Below, one piece after another: positions 5,524 through 50,319 of a DNA stretch of 64,000 nt (the stretch's first letter is position 1; each line of letters opens with the position of its first letter). The notes below the pieces were generated by a model. It was not told the origin of the DNA. It did not search any database and saw nothing but the letters and a program-made list of their open reading frames with translations. The position numbers and the translations under genes were made by a program. The DNA is from Lachnospiraceae bacterium (GTDB taxonomy: Bacteria > Bacillota > Clostridia > Lachnospirales > Lachnospiraceae), in NCBI GenBank assembly GCA_017455435.1, contig JAFTAU010000038.1, positions 2,284 through 66,283 of the forward strand, written 5' to 3'.

Positions 5524-6144
5524 ATGGAATTCAAGGTTTTTCAAAAAGAACTCGAGCTGCAGAGCAGGGGCTGGATCCCCACTTTCCACGACGTCTCAAA
5601 AGAGGTTATGGAGATAGTCGCTGCGTCCGGTGTCAAAAACGGCACAGTCACTATCGCGTCGCACCACACCACCTGCTCGGTCATGATACAGGAGTGCAGC
5701 CACGATCTGGATTCTTTCGATCTGGAATACCTGCAGCACGACCTGCTGGATATCATGAGGGATCTTATTCCGGATTACCGCGAGGAGGGCGACTATCGTC
5801 ATCCCGGCCCCGTTCACGCGCAGTTCGGCAGATATGTGGACGAGCCCGGCAACTATACCAGCATGAACACGGACGGCCACCTTCGCTCGGTATTCTTCGG
5901 ACGCAGTGAGACCATGACCATAAAGGACGGAGTGCTGGACGGCGGCGAATTCGCCCACATCTATTTCGTTGACTGGGATCAGGTCAGGGCCCGTCACCGT
6001 CAGCTCAATATTACCGTTATGGGTACCACGGACGACGTGGGAGACCGCAAGTGGAACGACGGAGAAACCATCAATACGCTCCGCAAATTCACCGAAGAAG
6101 AAAAGGCATACGACAGACGCTACACTCTTCAGCAGGAGAGATAA
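5524..6144 (+). CDS. YjbQ/UPF0047-family protein (secondary thiamine-phosphate synthase fold) with a C-terminal extension
   Basis: The stretch NGTVTIASHHTTCSVMIQE...D...DL is the YjbQ signature region. Strong GAAGGAGG RBS. Confidence 0.7.
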   Translation: MEFKVFQKELELQSRGWIPTFHDVSKEVMEIVAASGVKNGTVTIASHHTTCSVMIQECSHDLDSFDLEYLQHDLLDIMRDLIPDYREEGDYRHPGPVHAQFGRYVDEPGNYTSMNTDGHLRSVFFGRSETMTIKDGVLDGGEFAHIYFVDWDQVRARHRQLNITVMGTTDDVGDRKWNDGETINTLRKFTEEEKAYDRRYTLQQER

Positions 6145-8101: not shown

Positions 8102-8709
8102 AAAGATATTGTGCAAAAAAGGTGACGGGCACTCCTGATTGGGAGGATTGTCCGAGTGCTTTTCTCGAGGAAAAATATCGTTTGACGCCGCCCGGGACCG
8201 GCGCCGAAGCTCAGCTCGCCTGGACGGACGACAAGCTGCTGGTTCATCTGAGGGCTTACGTCAGTGAAATCCGCGCGGAGGAAAAGGGTCCTACGGGTTC
8301 GCCCTGCGAGGACAGCTGTCTGGAGTTCTTTTTCTGCCCGGTTCCCGGCGACGGGCGTTATTTTAATATAGAGTTTAATTTTAACGGTTGTGTGTATCTG
8401 GGTTTCGCGAGCGGTCTTTCCAATCTGGTAAGGCTCCTCCCGGAGGGCGGCATCGAGCAGATTTTCCATCCTGAGATCAAAAGGACTCCGGATGGGTGGG
8501 AAATCTTTTACGAGATTCCGTTTGATTTTATCCGCAGGTTTTTGCCGGAGACGAGACCCGCCGCAGGCAATGTAATCAAGGCTAATTTTTACGCCTGCTC
8601 CGATTTGTCCAATCCCCCCTACTACATTTCGTGGAGCCCGGTCCGGTCGGAGAGATTTACCTTCCACAACACCGACAACTTCGGGGAAGTGGTTTTCGAG
8701 ACAGATTAA
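8098..8709 (+). CDS. Carbohydrate-binding family 9-like (CBM9/DOMON-like) protein with no signal peptide
   Basis: Pattern W.DDKLLVHL.A...........DSCLEFF..P......YFNIE.N ... F....FG.VVF. The start is uncertain: TTG at 8098 overlaps the NagA-like stop, and the track ORF starts at 8053 inside the upstream gene. Confidence 0.5.
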   Translation: MKRYCAKKVTGTPDWEDCPSAFLEEKYRLTPPGTGAEAQLAWTDDKLLVHLRAYVSEIRAEEKGPTGSPCEDSCLEFFFCPVPGDGRYFNIEFNFNGCVYLGFASGLSNLVRLLPEGGIEQIFHPEIKRTPDGWEIFYEIPFDFIRRFLPETRPAAGNVIKANFYACSDLSNPPYYISWSPVRSERFTFHNTDNFGEVVFETD

Positions 8710-8714
8710 TTTTA

Positions 8715-9117
8715 GCCCCGCCCGTTTTTGACGCAAACTTGAAAATTTTTTATCGCACGAACATATACGCTTCGAAGCTTGCGCCTGTGCTGTCAGCGAA
8801 GCCCTACGGGCTCCGGCACGCTTGCCTCCGCCCGATGCCTTCGGACAGCGTTACGCCGCAATCTTCTCGCTAATGTCTTAATGCGAAAAAAATTTTAAGT
8901 TGTGCTATGCGGGCGGGGCAGGTTTCCTCGAGGCCGGCCCTCGTGCTACCTCAAGGCGGGATCCGAAGGCCGCCGGCGCTTAACGAATTCGAGCGTAAGC
9001 GATGAATGAGTTTAGCGTCCGCTGCGTGACTGAGATAGCGAGAGCGTCCCGCCGGAGGTTCACGAGGGTCAGGCCGGAACAGACACATCCCTCGTTTGCG
9101 TCAAAAGAGGGCGGGGC
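8715..9117. repeat. ~400-bp GC-rich non-coding element bounded by 24-nt imperfect inverted termini; MITE-like or structured RNA
   Basis: Left end is GCCCCGCCCGTTTTTGACGCAAAC (8715-8738). The reverse complement of the right end (9094-9117) is GCCCCGCCCTCTTTTGACGCAAAC, matching at 22/24. Internal long stems lie at 8789-8849 and at 8934-8961 paired with 9047-9077. Confidence 0.45.
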
Positions 9118-15924: not shown

Positions 15925-16987
15925 TGTGATAAAAAGACCTCGAAAGAGCAAAACAAAAAAGATTGTCTTTATTATCTTGTTTATAGCCCTGAATGCCGTT
16001 GTTCTCTATTTTACGGCAAAGGCGGATTTTTCAAAAAATCTTCCGGATTATCCCGGGACTCCGTTCGGAATTAAAAATATACTGTTTATGCTGGGCGCAC
16101 TGCTCTGCGTGGGAGCTGTTCTGGGCGCGGAAACAGTCAAATATCTGATGATGATGCGGCACCTGGGAGAAAAAGTCTCGCCGCGGGTCGCCTTTGAGAC
16201 CGCCGCCCTGGGCAAGTATTATGACAATATTACCCCTTCCGGCGCGGGTGGACAGCCGTTTCAGATATGGTACATCCATTCAAAGGGCTATTCCTCGGGC
16301 GCGTCGGCGGCCATGCCGCTGGGCGGTTTTATTACTATGCAGTTTGGCTTTGCTTTTCTGGCGCTGCTGGTTTTTGTTTTCGGCGGCGGCGCGGTGGGCG
16401 CGGTACCTATAAAAATCGCCGCTTATGTCGGCGCGCTGTTTTATCTTATCGTTCCGCTGATGATAGTAATTACGGCCGTTTCGCCGCGGCTGTCCGGAAA
16501 GATCGCTTCATTTATTATAAAGGCCGGCGGAAAGCTTCGTATTTTTAAAAATCCCGAAAGGAAAATCCAAAAGGCCGGAGAGGCTCTGGCAAATTATTCC
16601 GAGAGCCTCAAAAAAATAGCGAAAAGCAGGATGCTGCTCGTAAAGCTTTTTGTTCTGTCCGTGATTTTCCACGTGGCCATGTGTTCGCTGCCGTTTTTTG
16701 TGCTCCATATATTCGGCGCGAATATAGGTTTTTTTGAATCGCTGGCGATGTGCGTTTTTGTCTACGCGTCCATTACCATCGTTCCCACGCCCGGCAATTC
16801 CGGCGCGGCAGAGGGCTCGTTTTACATTCTTTTCAGTCGCCTTGACACCGCCGGCCTGTTCTGGGCTATGCTGGTGTGGCGTTTTCTTTGTTACTATACG
16901 TTCATTCTGATAGGTCTGGGGATTTACGGCTACGGTTCAGCTGAAAAGCTGCTGAAGAAAAAGAAGGGAGCCGAAAATGAAACCTGA
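15917..16987 (+). CDS. Flippase-like / lysyl-PG-synthase TM-region (UPF0104) family membrane protein
   Basis: Polytopic membrane protein of ~8 TM with a basic N-terminus and a PGNSGAAEG motif. Overlaps both neighbouring genes. Confidence 0.5.
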   Translation: MDNVIKRPRKSKTKKIVFIILFIALNAVVLYFTAKADFSKNLPDYPGTPFGIKNILFMLGALLCVGAVLGAETVKYLMMMRHLGEKVSPRVAFETAALGKYYDNITPSGAGGQPFQIWYIHSKGYSSGASAAMPLGGFITMQFGFAFLALLVFVFGGGAVGAVPIKIAAYVGALFYLIVPLMIVITAVSPRLSGKIASFIIKAGGKLRIFKNPERKIQKAGEALANYSESLKKIAKSRMLLVKLFVLSVIFHVAMCSLPFFVLHIFGANIGFFESLAMCVFVYASITIVPTPGNSGAAEGSFYILFSRLDTAGLFWAMLVWRFLCYYTFILIGLGIYGYGSAEKLLKKKKGAENET

Positions 16988-18170
16988 CAAGATACGTTCG
17001 GTACAATTTATTGACGCATTTTTTCCTACGGTAGACGGCGTTATTCAGACGGTACACAATTACGCGAGCATTTTGAACAGGAATTCTTTCTCCTGCGTTG
17101 TAGCGCCCAGAGGAAAGACGCCGTATCGGGGTGCTGATCTGCCGTACAAGGTAATGTGGACCTCGTCCATGAATCTCTCGGTGGCGGAATACCGCCTGCC
17201 GACACCCGGGCTGGACAAAAATCTCAACACTTTTCTGAATATCATACGCCCCGACATTTTTCACGCGCACACACCCTTCAATGAAGGCAAATTTGCCGTA
17301 AGGTACGCGAAAAAGCTGGGCATTCCATGTATAGCCACATTTCATTCCAAGTATTATGACGACGTGATGCACATCATCGGCTCAAAGCCCATCGCAAAGA
17401 TGGTTGTCGCCGATATCGTCAATCTCTACAAGCGCATGGACAGTGTATGGGCCTGCTCTGATGGTACGGCCGAAACGCTGCGCAGCTACGGCTACAATGG
17501 CGACATTTTTATCATGGACAATGGCTCGTCCTTTGAGATTCCGCGTGAGAAATGGCCGCGTTTAAAAGAAAAGGCCGCGCACCTTTATGGCATCAATCCG
17601 GGCAAAAAAAATATCCTGTTCGTAGGACATCTTATCTGGCATAAAAATCTAAAGCTTATTCTGGATGCTTTCAGGGAGCTGACAAGTGACAGTGACGATT
17701 ACAGGCTGATAATAGCCGGAGAGGGCTACGACGGTGAAGCTATAAAAGCTTATGCCGGGGATCTCAGGCTGCCGCCCGGGTCGGTGCGTTTCATCGGAAA
17801 GGTTTCGGACAGGGAGCTGCTGGGCGGTATATATCTGAACGGAGATATTTTCTTTTTCCCGTCTGTCTATGACAATTCGCCCCTGGTGGTCAGAGAAGCC
17901 GCTTCCATGGGGGTGCCTTCGCTGCTGACCGAAGAGTCAAACGCAGCGGAAGCCGTGGTGAAGGATGTTTCCGGCTTTACAGCCGCGGAAAACACTGAGG
18001 CAATGTGCGCCGAGCTGCGACGGATACTGACAGACGACGCCCTCCGCGCGCGCGTTGCGGCACGGGCCGAGATTGACATTCCTCAATCCTGGGAAGAAAT
18101 AGTGGAACGCGTCAGATACAAATACGCGGAAGTGATAGACGAGTACAATTTCCGGCATAAAAAAGGGTAG
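16977..18170 (+). CDS. Glycosyltransferase, GT4 family (GT-B fold)
   Basis: C-terminal pattern F.FPS.Y...PLVV.EA...G.P (E-X7-E-like region). 397 aa. Confidence 0.8.
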   Translation: MKPDKIRSVQFIDAFFPTVDGVIQTVHNYASILNRNSFSCVVAPRGKTPYRGADLPYKVMWTSSMNLSVAEYRLPTPGLDKNLNTFLNIIRPDIFHAHTPFNEGKFAVRYAKKLGIPCIATFHSKYYDDVMHIIGSKPIAKMVVADIVNLYKRMDSVWACSDGTAETLRSYGYNGDIFIMDNGSSFEIPREKWPRLKEKAAHLYGINPGKKNILFVGHLIWHKNLKLILDAFRELTSDSDDYRLIIAGEGYDGEAIKAYAGDLRLPPGSVRFIGKVSDRELLGGIYLNGDIFFFPSVYDNSPLVVREAASMGVPSLLTEESNAAEAVVKDVSGFTAAENTEAMCAELRRILTDDALRARVAARAEIDIPQSWEEIVERVRYKYAEVIDEYNFRHKKG

Positions 18171-18171
18171 C

Positions 18172-18198
18172 GAAAACACAAGGGGACTGTCCCTTTGT
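18172..18198 (+). repeat. Post-stop hairpin GAAAACACAAGGGGACTGTCCCTTTGTG, related to the hairpins at 49161 and 50290
   Basis: Starts 2 nt after the TAG stop of the GT4 gene. Same architecture, and most bases, as GAAACACACGGGGACAGTCCCCGTGTG. Confidence 0.55.
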
Positions 18199-18320
18199 GA
18201 TTGCTCCTTTGTGTTTTGCGACGATTATCGTCAAACTCTCATGCCTGCTTTTTGACTGATTCATAGCTACAGTCAATTAAGGGAAAAAAGCCTTGCGCAT
18301 AGTTGTTGATTTGGCTCATT

Positions 18321-18380
18321 GTTAGTCTGCGCATTATTGTACATATTGTGGTTAGTTTGCGCACTGCTGTATATATCACT
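18321..18380. repeat. Tandem imperfect 30-mer duplication
   Basis: GTTAGTCTGCGCATTATTGTACATATTGTG is followed directly by GTTAGTTTGCGCACTGCTGTATATATCACT. Confidence 0.6.
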
Positions 18381-18445
18381 CGCCCGGCATTATCCCACGC
18401 AACTATTCGTTAAAGTAAGGCGTTTTATAAAAAGCAAATATATTC

Positions 18446-18793
18446 GAGAGTGCTGTGAGGCATGTTGCTTCTCAGCACTCTCTCTTTTCGCCTTTTATTG
18501 GCAATAATAGAGTGCTGAGAGATATGTTGCCCTATAGCACTCTTTAAGCAGTGGAGATGTAAGTGATTTCGAGAGTGCTACAAGGCATGTATCGCTATAC
18601 CACTCCCAACTATTCGTTAAACTCATTTTCAAGAGAGTGCTACAAAGGCACATGCCCCGCAGCACTCTCGTTTTTACGAAAAAGCCGATTTTTTGAGAGT
18701 GCTACAAAGGCACATGCCCTGCAGCACTCCCGATTTCTTGAATATCCCGTTTTTAAGAGAGTGCTAAAGAGATACATGCCCTACAGCACTCTT
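18446..18793. repeat. Array of six 37-nt hairpin repeats at a fixed 62-63-bp period with unique 25-26-nt spacers (CRISPR-like layout, degenerate repeats)
   Basis: Repeat starts are at 18446, 18508, 18571, 18633, 18695 and 18757. The consensus is GAGAGTGCT-N19-AGCACTCTC. Arms are conserved and the centres vary around (G)GCA(C)ATG(T)(T)GCC. Confidence 0.8.
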
Positions 18794-18850
18794 TCAAACA
18801 GGCTTGTAGCTGTTTTTCTAAACCGTTACAAGAAATGATGAGGATATTCG

Positions 18851-18869
18851 AGGTCACAAATTGTGACCT
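18851..18869. promoter_or_regulatory. Perfect 19-bp palindrome AGGTCACAA-A-TTGTGACCT
   Basis: Read directly, ~240 bp upstream of the comB-like gene. No T-run follows, so an operator is more likely than a terminator. Confidence 0.3.
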
Positions 18870-19105
18870 TATAAGAAACTGTTCCCTGAAGACTATTGCT
18901 TCCGATTGACGGAGGAAACATTTTTGAAATGTAAAAACGATATCTCGAAGGATGAAGGCGAAGAGGAATTATTCGGCCAAAAAACGCAACCCAAATCACA
19001 TTATTCGTCTGAAAAACGTGCTGCGGGGTACAATCGGCAATAATAAGCAATGCGACGCTATGAGTCCCGTAGCAAAAAACGAGCGTTGGTGGTATTATAT
19101 ACACC

Positions 19106-19813
19106 ATGAATATCAGAATTAATCAGCAATTGAATGGAATAGAAGACATTACCGGGGCGGCGGTGATAATAGACGTTTTCAGAGCCTTCTCGGTGGAGTG
19201 CCATCTGCTAAGTAACGGCGCCGAAAAGCTTCTTGCAGTGGGCGGAAAGCAGGCGGCGTATGATTACCGCGAACGGCATCCGGGCACGCTTCTGATAGGC
19301 GAGAGAGACGGCGCAATGCTGCCCGGATTTAATTACGGCAATTCCCCTTCGCAGGTCGAAGGCGTCGATTTTACCGGAAAGACCGTCGTTCATACGACCA
19401 GCGCCGGAACGCAGGGCGTATCCGGAGCGAAGAACGCCCGCCTTATTCTGGGGGCTACGCTTTTGAACGCGGCAGCCACCGCGGAATATATCAAAAAGAT
19501 AGGAGAGGAAGATGTCACCCTCGTGTGCATGGGGTTGGGTGCGGTTGAGCCCACGGACGAGGACACGCTCTGCGCCGAATATATCCGCGCCATGCTGATT
19601 TCGGACGAGGCTGCCGACGAATTTAGAAAGACTCTGCCTGAACGCATTGAAGGGTTGAAATACACCAGCGGCGCCAAATTCTTTGACCCCGCGAGGCAGT
19701 CCGTTTTCCCTGAGAAGGACTTTTATCTAAGCACTGAAATCGACCGGTTTGACTTTGCAATTAAGGCCGGGCGCGCCGGCGACGGATTCTTCCTTATGAA
19801 AAAAACTATCTAA
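19106..19813 (+). CDS. comB: 2-phosphosulfolactate phosphatase (ComB) family protein
   Basis: Motifs VIIDVFRAFS, GER.G...PGF.YGNSP and HTTSAGT in a 235-aa protein. Confidence 0.75.
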   Translation: MNIRINQQLNGIEDITGAAVIIDVFRAFSVECHLLSNGAEKLLAVGGKQAAYDYRERHPGTLLIGERDGAMLPGFNYGNSPSQVEGVDFTGKTVVHTTSAGTQGVSGAKNARLILGATLLNAAATAEYIKKIGEEDVTLVCMGLGAVEPTDEDTLCAEYIRAMLISDEAADEFRKTLPERIEGLKYTSGAKFFDPARQSVFPEKDFYLSTEIDRFDFAIKAGRAGDGFFLMKKTI

Positions 19814-26464: not shown

Positions 26465-26802
26465 CGAACGCCCGGAGCGGCGCATATATTATTAAGATTT
26501 TTTACCAAATTATTTTACAAATAAAAGACAAATCCCTCAAAAATATAGTATAATAAATTGAACTGAGAACTTTCGTAATATAAAATTTCCTTCAGACAAA
26601 CGCCCTGGGGTGTTCGAAAAGCTGTATTATTTTTGAACCTACACTTTGACATAAGGGATTTCAGTATTGCTTTGGATATGTCAGGCCTCGATGCAGTGGA
26701 AGACAGAGTCCGAAGCCGCGATTACCCACCTGGCAGCAGCTAGGCGTCAGAAAAGCAGTCCGGCACTTTGGGGTTTAATTTTTTTCAGGGAGGAAAAATC
26801 CA

Positions 26803-36381: not shown

Positions 36382-36951
36382 ATGAAAAACAAAAAATTCA
36401 CAAAAATCGCGGCGGGGCTCTGCTTTGTTATATCAGGAGTCCTGTTTGCTCTTGCAAAGTCCGGTTTTGTAAAAAGCGAAGATGCGGTCGTCGTGACTAC
36501 GGCAGGCACAGAAGATGTGCCCGTGGATGGGAGCGCCGCGTCAGAGGAGCAGACGGTTTTCGTGCATGTCTGCGGCGCGGTAAAAAATCCCGGGATCTAC
36601 GGGCTTTCGGCCGGCAGCAGAATAGGAGACGCGATAGACGCCGCGGGAGGCTTTACCGCCGATGCCGACACTGACAGCCTGAACCTCGCCCAGCCCGTTT
36701 CGGATTCGCAGCAGGTTCGCGCCCCGACGCTGGGCGAAGCCTCAGAGCAGGCCGACGGAAAAATCAATATCAATACCGCGTCGCAGCAGCAGCTTGTGAC
36801 GCTGCCCGGCATCGGAGAATCAAAAGCCCGTGCCATTACGGATTTCCGCACGGAGCACGGCAGATTTGAAAAACCCGAGGACATCAAAAAAGTGCCGGGC
36901 ATAGGAGACTCCGTTTTTGAAAGAATCAAAAACGATATAAAGGTGGACTGA
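36382..36951 (+). CDS. comEA: ComEA-family helix-hairpin-helix DNA-binding competence protein
   Basis: N-terminal TM segment, SLBB-like segment VHV.GAV..PG.Y, and C-terminal INTAS...L..LPGIG..KA..I...R...G.F....D...V.GIG. Confidence 0.85.
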   Translation: MKNKKFTKIAAGLCFVISGVLFALAKSGFVKSEDAVVVTTAGTEDVPVDGSAASEEQTVFVHVCGAVKNPGIYGLSAGSRIGDAIDAAGGFTADADTDSLNLAQPVSDSQQVRAPTLGEASEQADGKININTASQQQLVTLPGIGESKARAITDFRTEHGRFEKPEDIKKVPGIGDSVFERIKNDIKVD

Positions 36952-49160: not shown

Positions 49161-49190
49161 TGAAACACACGGGGACAGTTCCCGTGTGTT
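49161..49190 (+). repeat. Left 30-bp direct repeat / hairpin flanking the rhuM cassette
   Basis: TGAAACACACGGGGACAGTTCCCGTGTGTT, which is 29/30 identical to 50290-50319. It forms a ~12-bp stem, here followed by TTTAAAAA. Confidence 0.85.
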
Positions 49191-49302: not shown

Positions 49303-50292
49303 ATGGATAATTATGGAGAAATTGTTATTTACCAGACTGAGGATGGTTTTTCAAAAATTGAAGTCAATTTAAAAAATGAAACAGTATGGCTGTCGATTGA
49401 TCAGATGGCTGAACTGTTTCAGCGGGATAGAAGTGTTATTGGAAAGCATGTACGTAATATATTTAAAGAGGGTGAACTGAAAAAAGATTCAGTATGGGCA
49501 AAAATTGCCTACACTGCCGCCGATGGAAAAATATATGACGTAGATTTTTATAATTTGGATGTTATTATTTCCGTGGGCTATAGGGTTAAATCCTTTCGTG
49601 GCACACAATTTCGAATTTGGGCAAATTCGGTACTTAGGGAATACATAATCAAGGGATTTACAATTGACGACGAGCGCCTGAAGGGAAATGCCGGAGGAAA
49701 TTATTGGAAGGAACTTCTTGATCGAATCCGTGATATCCGTTCATCGGACAAGGTGCTTTATCGTCAGGTGTTAGATTTATATGCAACAAGCGTGGATTAT
49801 AATCCGAAGAGCGAAGAATCCATTCAGTTTTTTAAAATTGTACAAAACAAGCTCCATTATGCTGCCCATGGACATACTGCGGCAGAAGTGATTTATGAAC
49901 GTGCTGATGCGGAAAAGCCATTTATGGGATTGACATCTTTTTCTGGCGAGCTGCCTGCTCTTAAAGATATCGGAGTTGCAAAAAACTACTTGAAAGAAGA
50001 TGAACTAAAGGTTTTAAACAATCTTGTTTCCGGCTATTTTGATTTAGCTGAAATATCTGCCATAGAGCATAAACCGATGTATATGAGTGACTACGTGACA
50101 CAGCTGGACTCAATTCTTACTTCGGGAAACAGAAAACTTCTTACCGATGCAGGAAGTATAAGCCATGATCAAGCCATGAAGAAGGCAAAGGATGAATACA
50201 GAAAATATCAGGAGATAACGCTGTCTCCTGTTGAAGAAGAGTATCTAAAGAGTATTAAAGAAGTGGAAAAAGAGGCCAAAAAGAAAAACTGA
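49303..50292 (+). CDS. rhuM: RhuM-family protein (virulence/defence-island-associated, function unknown)
   Basis: N-terminus IVIYQTEDG..K.EV.L..ETVWL...QMAELFQ.DR.VI.KH..NIFKEGEL, then YNLDVIISVGYRVKS.RGTQFRIWA. Visibly AT-rich compared with its neighbours. Confidence 0.85.
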   Translation: MDNYGEIVIYQTEDGFSKIEVNLKNETVWLSIDQMAELFQRDRSVIGKHVRNIFKEGELKKDSVWAKIAYTAADGKIYDVDFYNLDVIISVGYRVKSFRGTQFRIWANSVLREYIIKGFTIDDERLKGNAGGNYWKELLDRIRDIRSSDKVLYRQVLDLYATSVDYNPKSEESIQFFKIVQNKLHYAAHGHTAAEVIYERADAEKPFMGLTSFSGELPALKDIGVAKNYLKEDELKVLNNLVSGYFDLAEISAIEHKPMYMSDYVTQLDSILTSGNRKLLTDAGSISHDQAMKKAKDEYRKYQEITLSPVEEEYLKSIKEVEKEAKKKN

Positions 50293-50319
50293 AACACACG
50301 GGGACAGTCCCCGTGTGTT
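50290..50319 (+). repeat. Right 30-bp direct repeat / hairpin flanking the rhuM cassette
   Basis: TGAAACACACGGGGACAGTCCCCGTGTGTT. Its first three bases are the rhuM TGA stop. Confidence 0.85.

Follow-up and report, generated by a model that had tools for sequence, protein, structure and literature searches.

A CRISPR look-alike in a Lachnospiraceae bacterium: a phased array of polar palindromic units within a 400-bp repeat module

Accessory genes, often of toxin-antitoxin type, lie between palindromic sites in integron attC arrays, in the pdif modules of Acinetobacter and in the dRS3/NIME elements of Neisseria. Intergenic palindromes are also clustered in bacterial interspersed mosaic elements (BIMEs), whose repetitive extragenic palindromes (REPs) are known to be bound by proteins and to act as hot spots of recombination (PMC2817692, PMC3333891) and usually exceed 100 copies per genome (PMC2817692). 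Arrays laid out like CRISPR that show no spacer diversity and have no cas genes are classed as 'false-CRISPR' elements (PMC5294841). Among protein-bound sites, the sopC array of the F plasmid consists of 12 units of 43 bp, each with a 16-bp SopB site (PMC3177203), and CIRCE, the target of the heat-shock repressor HrcA, has the half-site consensus TTAGCACTC-N9-GAGTGCTAA (PMC545781). An array of six 37-nt palindromic units is described here from a 64,000-nt stretch of a Lachnospiraceae genome (contig JAFTAU010000038.1 of assembly GCA_017455435.1; the whole stretch is referred to as the window) and compared with homologous contigs, designated by L numbers, of one species and about five haplotypes. 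The array is best read as a non-coding repeat module specific to its lineage, and it belongs with the structured intergenic palindromic repeats already known; what sets it apart is a strict six-turn phasing, a split polarity and a module-level duplication around a toxin-antitoxin-like cassette. The explanation tentatively preferred for it, with confidence a little short of even, is that its units are phased, double-stranded recognition sites for a protein and double as portable recombination homology.

The units begin at positions 18446, 18508, 18571, 18633, 18695 and 18757, with periods of 62, 63, 62, 62 and 62 bp; these values, and the unit sequences quoted in an earlier note on this DNA, are all reproduced in the window. 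A search for AGAGTGCT-N19-AGCACTC allowing up to two mismatches returns six matches in the 64 kb, which are the array units alone (0.04 expected by chance from dinucleotide shuffles), and a covariance model run with its filters off finds no further copy in the window, the next best match scoring 13 bits. Tandem Repeats Finder reports a 62-bp period across the right half of the array. Each unit is a 17-3-17 quasi-palindrome with a central triplet that reads TGT on the plus strand in units 1 to 3 and ACA in units 4 to 6. The unit centres are polar, with an invariant ACA(T), usually ACATGCC, located on the minus strand in units 1 to 3 and on the plus strand in units 4 to 6, and with the first three units reverse-complemented all six align as GAGAGTGCT-N8-ACATGCC-N4-AGCACTCTC. 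The earlier note described these centres as drifting; they are indeed variable, but their polarity was overlooked. A leave-one-out position-weight test gives 7.6 to 19.1 bits for the assigned orientation against -1.1 to -4.4 bits for the opposite one, the lowest-scoring assignment being that of unit 2, the flanks of which look mosaic. The polarity order (- - - + + +) is common to all strains compared.

Conservation within the unit is concentrated in the arms. Identity between units is 97.6% in the 7-nt arm cores GAGTGCT/AGCACTC versus 62% in the centres, with 2 of 14 columns variable in the former and 14 of 19 in the latter (Fisher p = 0.0013), and the conserved outer 9-bp arms pointed out earlier are present in the 37-nt units. 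In an alignment of 15 distinct units taken from five haplotypes, positions G3-T6, T9, A18-T21, C24 and A29-C35 are invariant. The intervening spacers differ from the units in composition (GC of 0.30, with A/T tracts, versus 0.52) and most spacer pairs are as similar as random 25-mers of the same composition, the exception being spacers 3 and 5, which match at 17/25 positions (99th percentile of random). Every spacer is nevertheless 25-26 nt long and every period is 62 or 63 bp in all strains compared; divergence of the spacers to the random level at constant length argues for selection on spacing.

Comparison of strains reveals that the array differs only by single-nucleotide polymorphisms (SNPs) and by insertion or deletion of whole 62-bp units. 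The same spacers occur in the same order in the window, in both array copies (A and B) of contig L098, in L100 and in L112, and partially in L003 and L109. Contigs L100 and L112, the latter from an NCBI metagenome-assembled genome (MAG), carry units 2-6 with the spacers of the window. The sister-strain contigs L003-L006, whose copy of the adjacent 2-phosphosulfolactate-phosphatase-family gene ('ComB' in this analysis) is 98% identical, contain spacer 3, one unit, spacer 5 and the last unit, such that the spacers are conserved and one complete 62-bp unit is absent.

These comparisons bear directly on the possibility that the locus is a decayed orphan CRISPR array, which the regular layout, 37-nt palindromic repeat, constant spacer length, strict periodicity and AT-rich leader-like sequence on one side all bring to mind. 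That origin is extremely improbable: spacer order is identical and spacer sequence nearly identical across strains, with no turnover, and the entire array has been duplicated together with its spacers. In addition, unit polarity flips mid-array where CRISPR repeats are direct and of a single orientation, the repeat centres are degenerate at just 62% identity, spacers 3 and 5 are related to each other, and the whole module has no phage or plasmid match and no protospacer-type matches. No Cas family is detected by Pfam in the 64 kb or in the gene tables of L001 and L098, and Pfam searches of the window's open reading frames (ORFs) likewise find no integrase, resolvase, transposase (including Y1/RAYT), ParA/ParB or HrcA. 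The earlier note correctly reported the lack of cas genes in the 64 kb; the CRISPR relic it offered as one option is refuted by the mixed polarity, by the whole-array duplication, by the missing cas genes and by the very observation it had named in advance, spacers conserved in homologous genomes. Its description of the spacers as unique holds within one array for most pairs, but not for spacers 3 and 5, nor across strains and module copies, where the same sequences recur.

By the published definition the array is a 'false-CRISPR', sharing the repeat-spacer layout, the lack of spacer diversity and the lack of cas genes with the tandem-repeat, STAR-like and 'unknown' elements of Zhang and Ye 2017 (PMC5294841). 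That class, however, is a catch-all defined by exclusion and carries no mechanism, and STAR repeats are short GC-rich direct repeats whereas the units here are 37-bp polar palindromes. The module is a well-documented CRISPR look-alike that would pass layout-based detectors, and between-strain spacer conservation should filter out such look-alikes.

The repeated entity is larger than the array. In L098 the array is present in two direct-orientation copies, A with five units and B with six, of which copy A lies 3' of an ADP-ribosylglycohydrolase gene and copy B lies 5' of ComB. The 2.2 kb between them contains an XRE-type helix-turn-helix (HTH) gene with a truncated partner ORF, followed by another HTH gene. 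This two-copy structure is not a scaffolding artefact, since it is also seen in L109, an independent single contig from Logan and a different sample. That contig leads from the '>' units of copy A over the same junction (TCAAAC followed directly by GGTATGGCGCC), then past the HTH gene and its DUF6036 partner, here intact at 241 aa, and reaches the leader and unit 1 of copy B. In the window strain there is a single module copy, with no HTH + DUF6036 cassette. Identity between module copies begins at 18400 (CAACTATTCG...) and ends at 18799 (...TCAAAC), which delimits the following features in the window:

18400 to 18799, unstranded: whole module of 400 bp (leader, six units, five spacers and 6-nt tail), with identity boundaries from BLAST and alignment of L098 A, L098 B and L109 against the window
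18400 to 18445, plus strand: leader CAACTATTCGTTAAAGTAAGGCGTTTTATAAAAAGCAAATATATTC, 46 nt and AT-rich, 5' of unit 1 in the window, L098 A and L098 B, variant in L109
18446 to 18482, minus strand: unit 1, central TGT on the plus strand, a near-perfect 17-3-17 palindrome
18483 to 18507, unstranded: spacer 1, 25 nt with T-tracts, conserved in L098 A and B
18508 to 18544, minus strand: unit 2, weakest polarity call, core ACATATC
18545 to 18570, unstranded: spacer 2, 26 nt
18571 to 18607, minus strand: unit 3, with a single uncompensated arm change (ACCACTC)
18608 to 18632, unstranded: spacer 3, 25 nt, the polarity switch point, at which several short-read contigs begin
18633 to 18669, plus strand: unit 4, core ACATGCC
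18670 to 18694, unstranded: spacer 4, 25 nt with T5, A5 and T6 tracts
18695 to 18731, plus strand: unit 5, identical to unit 4 at 35/37 positions; the number of such units differs among strains
18732 to 18756, unstranded: spacer 5, 25 nt, akin to spacer 3 (17/25 positions match)
18757 to 18793, plus strand: unit 6, of plus polarity
18794 to 18799, plus strand: tail TCAAAC, which closes the module on the right and with which identity of the array copies ends
18200 to 18399, unstranded: haplotype-specific left flank with two 26-nt direct repeats; an ADP-ribosylglycohydrolase gene occupies this position in L098

The ends of the module are sharp. Identical module ends abut three left flanks, which have just a loose yRCRCA in common, and two right flanks, where TCAAAC is followed by AGGCTTG towards ComB versus GGTATGG towards the cassette. 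At the left, the boundary falls on a junction between unit arm and spacer: the leader opens with 14 nt that match the start of spacer 3, and the 9 nt before the leader (18390-18399, TTATCCCACG) resemble a decayed unit 3' arm (CCCACGC); the right end falls 6 nt past unit 6. No convincing terminal inverted repeats or target-site duplications are seen at the module ends by inspection. The left flank in the window, 18200-18399, has no counterpart in the other strains compared, and its 26-nt direct repeats, GTTAGTCTGCGCATTATTGTACATAT (18321-18346) and GTTAGTTTGCGCACTGCTGTATATAT (18351-18376), are 30 bp apart.

The array also changes faster than its surroundings. Between the window and L098 copy B (18446-18793 against 9341-9688 of L098) the array diverges by 4.0%, the 312-bp right flank by 1.0% and the flanking genes by 1.7-2.0%, a two- to four-fold difference, while copies A and B of L098 differ from each other by 1.2%. 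The lower figure within L098 compared with that between strains suggests recent duplication of the module or exchange between its copies, and fast array divergence together with similar copies is consistent with palindrome-associated mutagenesis plus gene conversion. The module behaves as recombinogenic, portable homology, in that whole units come and go and one or two module copies bracket a cassette.

The cassette itself consists of an XRE-type HTH protein (189 aa) and a DUF6036 partner (241-243 aa), a pair found at 7409-8370 of L098, at 421-1705 of L109 and in L104 and L106-L108. The pair is widespread in Clostridia in varied genomic contexts and is like a mobile toxin-antitoxin-like module; in this HTH family the usual partner is a DUF6036 protein of 243 aa. 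In L098 the DUF6036 partner is truncated to 127 aa, with a weak, sub-threshold RelA/SpoT-like match. The array is rejected as a component of this cassette family, as close homologues of the pair (78-84% identity, on long contigs of other lineages, L104-L108) are carried without arrays; a 189-aa ORF at 36382, considered as a second cassette copy in the window, is ComEA-like and unrelated. Upstream of the cassette HTH gene (7291-7330 in L098, about 300-340 in L109) is a further palindrome, AAACTTGTTTGTA-N5-TACAAAyAAGTTT, which looks like a putative operator of that gene. The same palindrome occurs alone in a 63-bp insertion upstream of ComB in L003-L006 (approximately at window position 18968), with no HTH gene there.

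Whether the units are conserved as structures or as sequences can be judged from the changes they have accumulated. As RNA the single units fold well (minimum -25.7 kcal/mol, z-scores to -6.5), and the strand that folds better switches mid-array, as unit polarity predicts. The 15-unit alignment contains no compensatory base-pair changes, however, and its covariation is below that of shuffled controls; each of the four arm substitutions present disrupts a pair (A·C, G·G), and pairing in the inner helix extends to just 69% of cells. Because compensatory changes are lacking and arm changes break pairing, the arms are conserved as sequence and not as a helix. That pattern points to a double-stranded recognition site and not to an RNA or DNA hairpin.

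An RNA-level function, as tandem terminators or an operon insulator, as a 3' structure that stabilises an mRNA or as the multi-hairpin precursor of small RNAs, is accordingly held to be decidedly unlikely. Apart from the folding energies, such a role would fit the U-rich stretches that follow units 1, 4 and 5 on the plus strand and the position of the L098 module, which begins 13 nt past a stop codon. The missing covariation and uncompensated arm changes speak against it, as do the mid-array switch of the better-folding strand and the weak plus-strand folding of units 2, 3 and 6. Promoter prediction gives no promoter within the array, Rfam gives nothing close to a gathering score between 17500 and 19500 even at E up to 10, and the upstream operon already has a terminator-like hairpin at 18178-18198. 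The small-RNA and terminator modules suggested in the earlier note thus find no backing in covariation, arm changes, Rfam or promoter prediction. Its other suggestion, phased protein-binding hairpins, is the best-fitting of its alternatives, with the amendment that the sites would be double-stranded and sequence-specific and not hairpins.

On the preferred explanation, a sequence-specific protein would recognize each unit as double-stranded DNA through a pair of inverted half-sites (GAGTGCT and AGCACTC, their centres 26 bp apart) together with the polar ACA(T)GCC element. As the period of 62-63 bp is approximately six helical turns, the bound proteins would align on one face of the helix, and they would form two opposed groups of three. 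At 400 bp and with internal repetition the module would also act as portable homology, through which unequal recombination could gain or lose whole 62-bp units, and recombination between two module copies could insert or delete the intervening accessory cassette. A parallel to such phased binding is a centromere array of the sopC type, which likewise has fixed-length tandem units containing an inverted-repeat motif and phased by whole helical turns; sopC units, however, are near-identical, all direct and adjoin sopAB, whereas the linkers here are diverged, the polarity is split and no partition genes occur in the 64 kb, ParA/ParB/SopAB-like genes being absent from both the window and the L098 insert. 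A replication terminus or fork trap with opposed Ter sites was also considered and rejected, because GC skew stays at approximately +0.05 to either side of the array and does not change sign.

Several points weigh against recognition sites that double as homology. No candidate binding protein was found and nothing adjacent co-occurs with the array, and the window strain retains the array yet has none of the cassette's HTH genes. For a simple dimer, 26 bp between half-sites is a long distance. Arm conservation could stem in part from a recent common origin of the units or from gene conversion among them; between strains, the arms change by 2.8% versus 4.4-4.8% in centres and spacers, a modest gap from small counts. 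The fixed spacing could be a legacy of how the array was built and not be selected, homologous recombination alone does not explain the sharp module ends, and the evidence comes from one species and about five haplotypes.

The units could also be site-specific recombination sites of att-, res- or pdif-like type, in which the polar ACA/TGT centre would be the crossover point and the recombinase would be encoded elsewhere. Direct module copies would then allow the cassette to excise or integrate as a circle. This is an unlikely alternative, though one with several features in its favour: three left and two right flanks are joined at the same nucleotide to within 1-2 nt, both module ends border a unit or unit remnant on its 3' side, the palindromic units have an asymmetric centre, and the direct repeats bracket a toxin-antitoxin-like cassette, an arrangement that resembles integron and pdif modules. 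Opposed to it are the lack of any integrase, resolvase, invertase or transposase in the cassette, the 64-kb window or the L098 flanks, the presence of six sites per module and not one per cassette, and the finding that no strain is inverted between the oppositely oriented units. The endpoints of unit-number changes, moreover, lie in shared arm sequence, as in ordinary unequal recombination.

A more specific form of this idea, considered improbable, is that the module serves as the landing and excision site of a trans-acting cassette-exchange system in Lachnospiraceae, in which the ACA/TGT-centred palindromes would be the points of crossover or synapsis and which would move small recombinase-less accessory cassettes such as HTH + DUF6036. 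By analogy, such a system would be akin in function to integron attC and pdif, with boundaries that are multi-site, phased and two-armed. The locus resembles the attC, pdif and dRS3 cassette systems in its bracketing imperfect palindromes with a polar centre, but in those systems a single site marks each boundary and the recombinase is known (IntI, XerCD or phage integrase), whereas five or six sites occur per boundary here and the arms do not resemble attC or dif. For integron attC sites and clusters of attC sites lacking integrases (CALIN), the RYYYAAC/GTTRRRY arm form is not seen by inspection, a dedicated attC model not having been run, and no integrase was found. Classical integrons are not known to occur in Firmicutes.

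Mobility could alternatively reside in the units themselves, as in a REP/BIME-type selfish element whose hairpins would be recognized in single-stranded form by a Y1 (RAYT / IS200-like) transposase encoded elsewhere; the transposase would build and spread the clusters, and any cellular role would be secondary. As in the BIMEs of Enterobacteria and Pseudomonas, the units are imperfect palindromes in the range of about 35-40 nt, intergenic, regularly spaced in clusters, in mixed orientation and lineage-specific (PMC2817692, PMC3333891). The module is found in more than one context, and the same genome has other small palindrome families at gene boundaries. The element nonetheless departs from REPs in its copy number, with one or two copies at a single locus (one locus in the 64 kb plus flanks, about 70 kb of genome examined) versus more than 100 dispersed copies, in its 3+3 and not alternating orientation, and in the repetition of a whole 400-bp block. 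No Y1 transposase or RAYT gene is seen in the window, no single units occur in any collection searched, and hairpin recognition would tolerate compensatory changes, of which none are seen. A selfish origin of this kind is therefore judged unlikely, and the dispersed, REP-like occurrence of single units envisaged in the earlier note is not observed.

One of these other palindrome families is a dispersed hairpin, (G)AAACACACGGGGACAGTCCCCGTGTGT, that lies directly 3' of stop codons, with copies at 18178-18198, 49167-49187 and 50296-50316 in the window and at 5980, 7224, 8396 and 9241 in L098. Two copies bracket a RhuM-family gene in the window (49303-50292), and two in L098 bracket the third gene of the insert (HTH_31, 8508-9092); L109 is without the HTH_31 gene and keeps one hybrid hairpin. 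By appearance a REP-like or terminator-like repeat, this family also seems to delimit single-gene insertions or deletions, and it has no exact match in IMG/VR.

The arm sequences themselves raise the question of HrcA, since the cores GAGTGCT / AGCACTC are the same as the 7-nt half-site cores of CIRCE, also arranged there as inverted repeats (PMC545781). Unit 6 has the full 9-mer GAGTGCTAA, several units match it at 8/9 positions, and half-sites of adjacent units stand in CIRCE orientation with 20 extra bp, or approximately two helical turns. A CIRCE-derived array that would bind or titrate HrcA is very unlikely all the same. The N9 spacing is never present, being N19 (everted) within units and N29 between them; there are six tandem copies where CIRCE has one, and they are not 5' of chaperone genes. 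The 64 kb contains no canonical site within 3 mismatches and no hrcA, groESL, dnaK or other chaperone gene, and the chance of a 7-nt coincidence with some known palindromic operator is estimated by the author at a few percent.

Beyond the locus, the 16-nt arm pattern occurs at six isolated sites in IMG/VR and 78 in 185,579 GTDB representative genomes, where by the author's estimate approximately 140 isolated sites are expected by chance. These sites are without the central core or a neighbouring unit, and their scores under the unit covariance model do not exceed 29 bits and are alike on both strands. The oriented unit pattern has no matches in JGI metagenomes, and an arms-only tandem pattern has five, all in unrelated sequences. 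Searches with the module by blastn find nothing among 50,697 records of phages and 72,556 of plasmids, and the next-closest ComB lineage (68% identity; L007, L008) is not syntenic and has no motif. On the basis of these GTDB, JGI, IMG/VR, phage and plasmid searches, the module is recorded in this species alone. Contigs from Logan, MEGAHIT and an NCBI MAG (JAFYCV010000061.1) repeatedly end within the array, often at spacer 3, as seen at the end of L002 and at the starts of L003-L006, L100, L103, L109 and L112. Since assemblies break inside the module, such modules are lost or split and under-sampled in MAG catalogues, which may be why GTDB representative genomes contain no copy.

Together, the phasing, conserved half-sites, opposed triplets and duplicated copy around a cassette suggest an unrecognised nucleoprotein or recombination element in Lachnospiraceae, a major gut and rumen family. 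If a binding protein or recombinase is found, the module would represent a new type of genome-plasticity site in Firmicutes; if neither is, it would be one more lineage-specific structured repeat.

The genomic setting of the array is otherwise ordinary. It lies in a gene-free interval of 935 bp (18171-19105) with a GC of 0.42 versus 0.51 for the whole window, bearing out the earlier description of this region as gene-free and AT-richer, between a GT4-type glycosyltransferase gene on the left (16977-18170) and ComB on the right (19106-19813). The ORFs that cross the array have no Pfam protein-family match, and the 62-bp strain indels would break their frame, in agreement with the earlier view that they are artefacts. 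Pfam analysis of the window's long ORFs (at least 180 aa) and of ORFs in the gaps identifies ordinary metabolic, transport and regulatory genes; the RhuM-family gene, competence genes and sigma-70 are also encoded. Between the array and ComB is a perfect 19-bp palindrome, AGGTCACAAATTGTGACCT (18851-18869), which is kept in all strains with one flanking SNP and is a plausible candidate operator for the downstream ComB-family gene. The window has no tRNA genes, and its sole Rfam match is a 6S RNA gene (RF00013, 61.6 bits) on the plus strand at 26599-26778.

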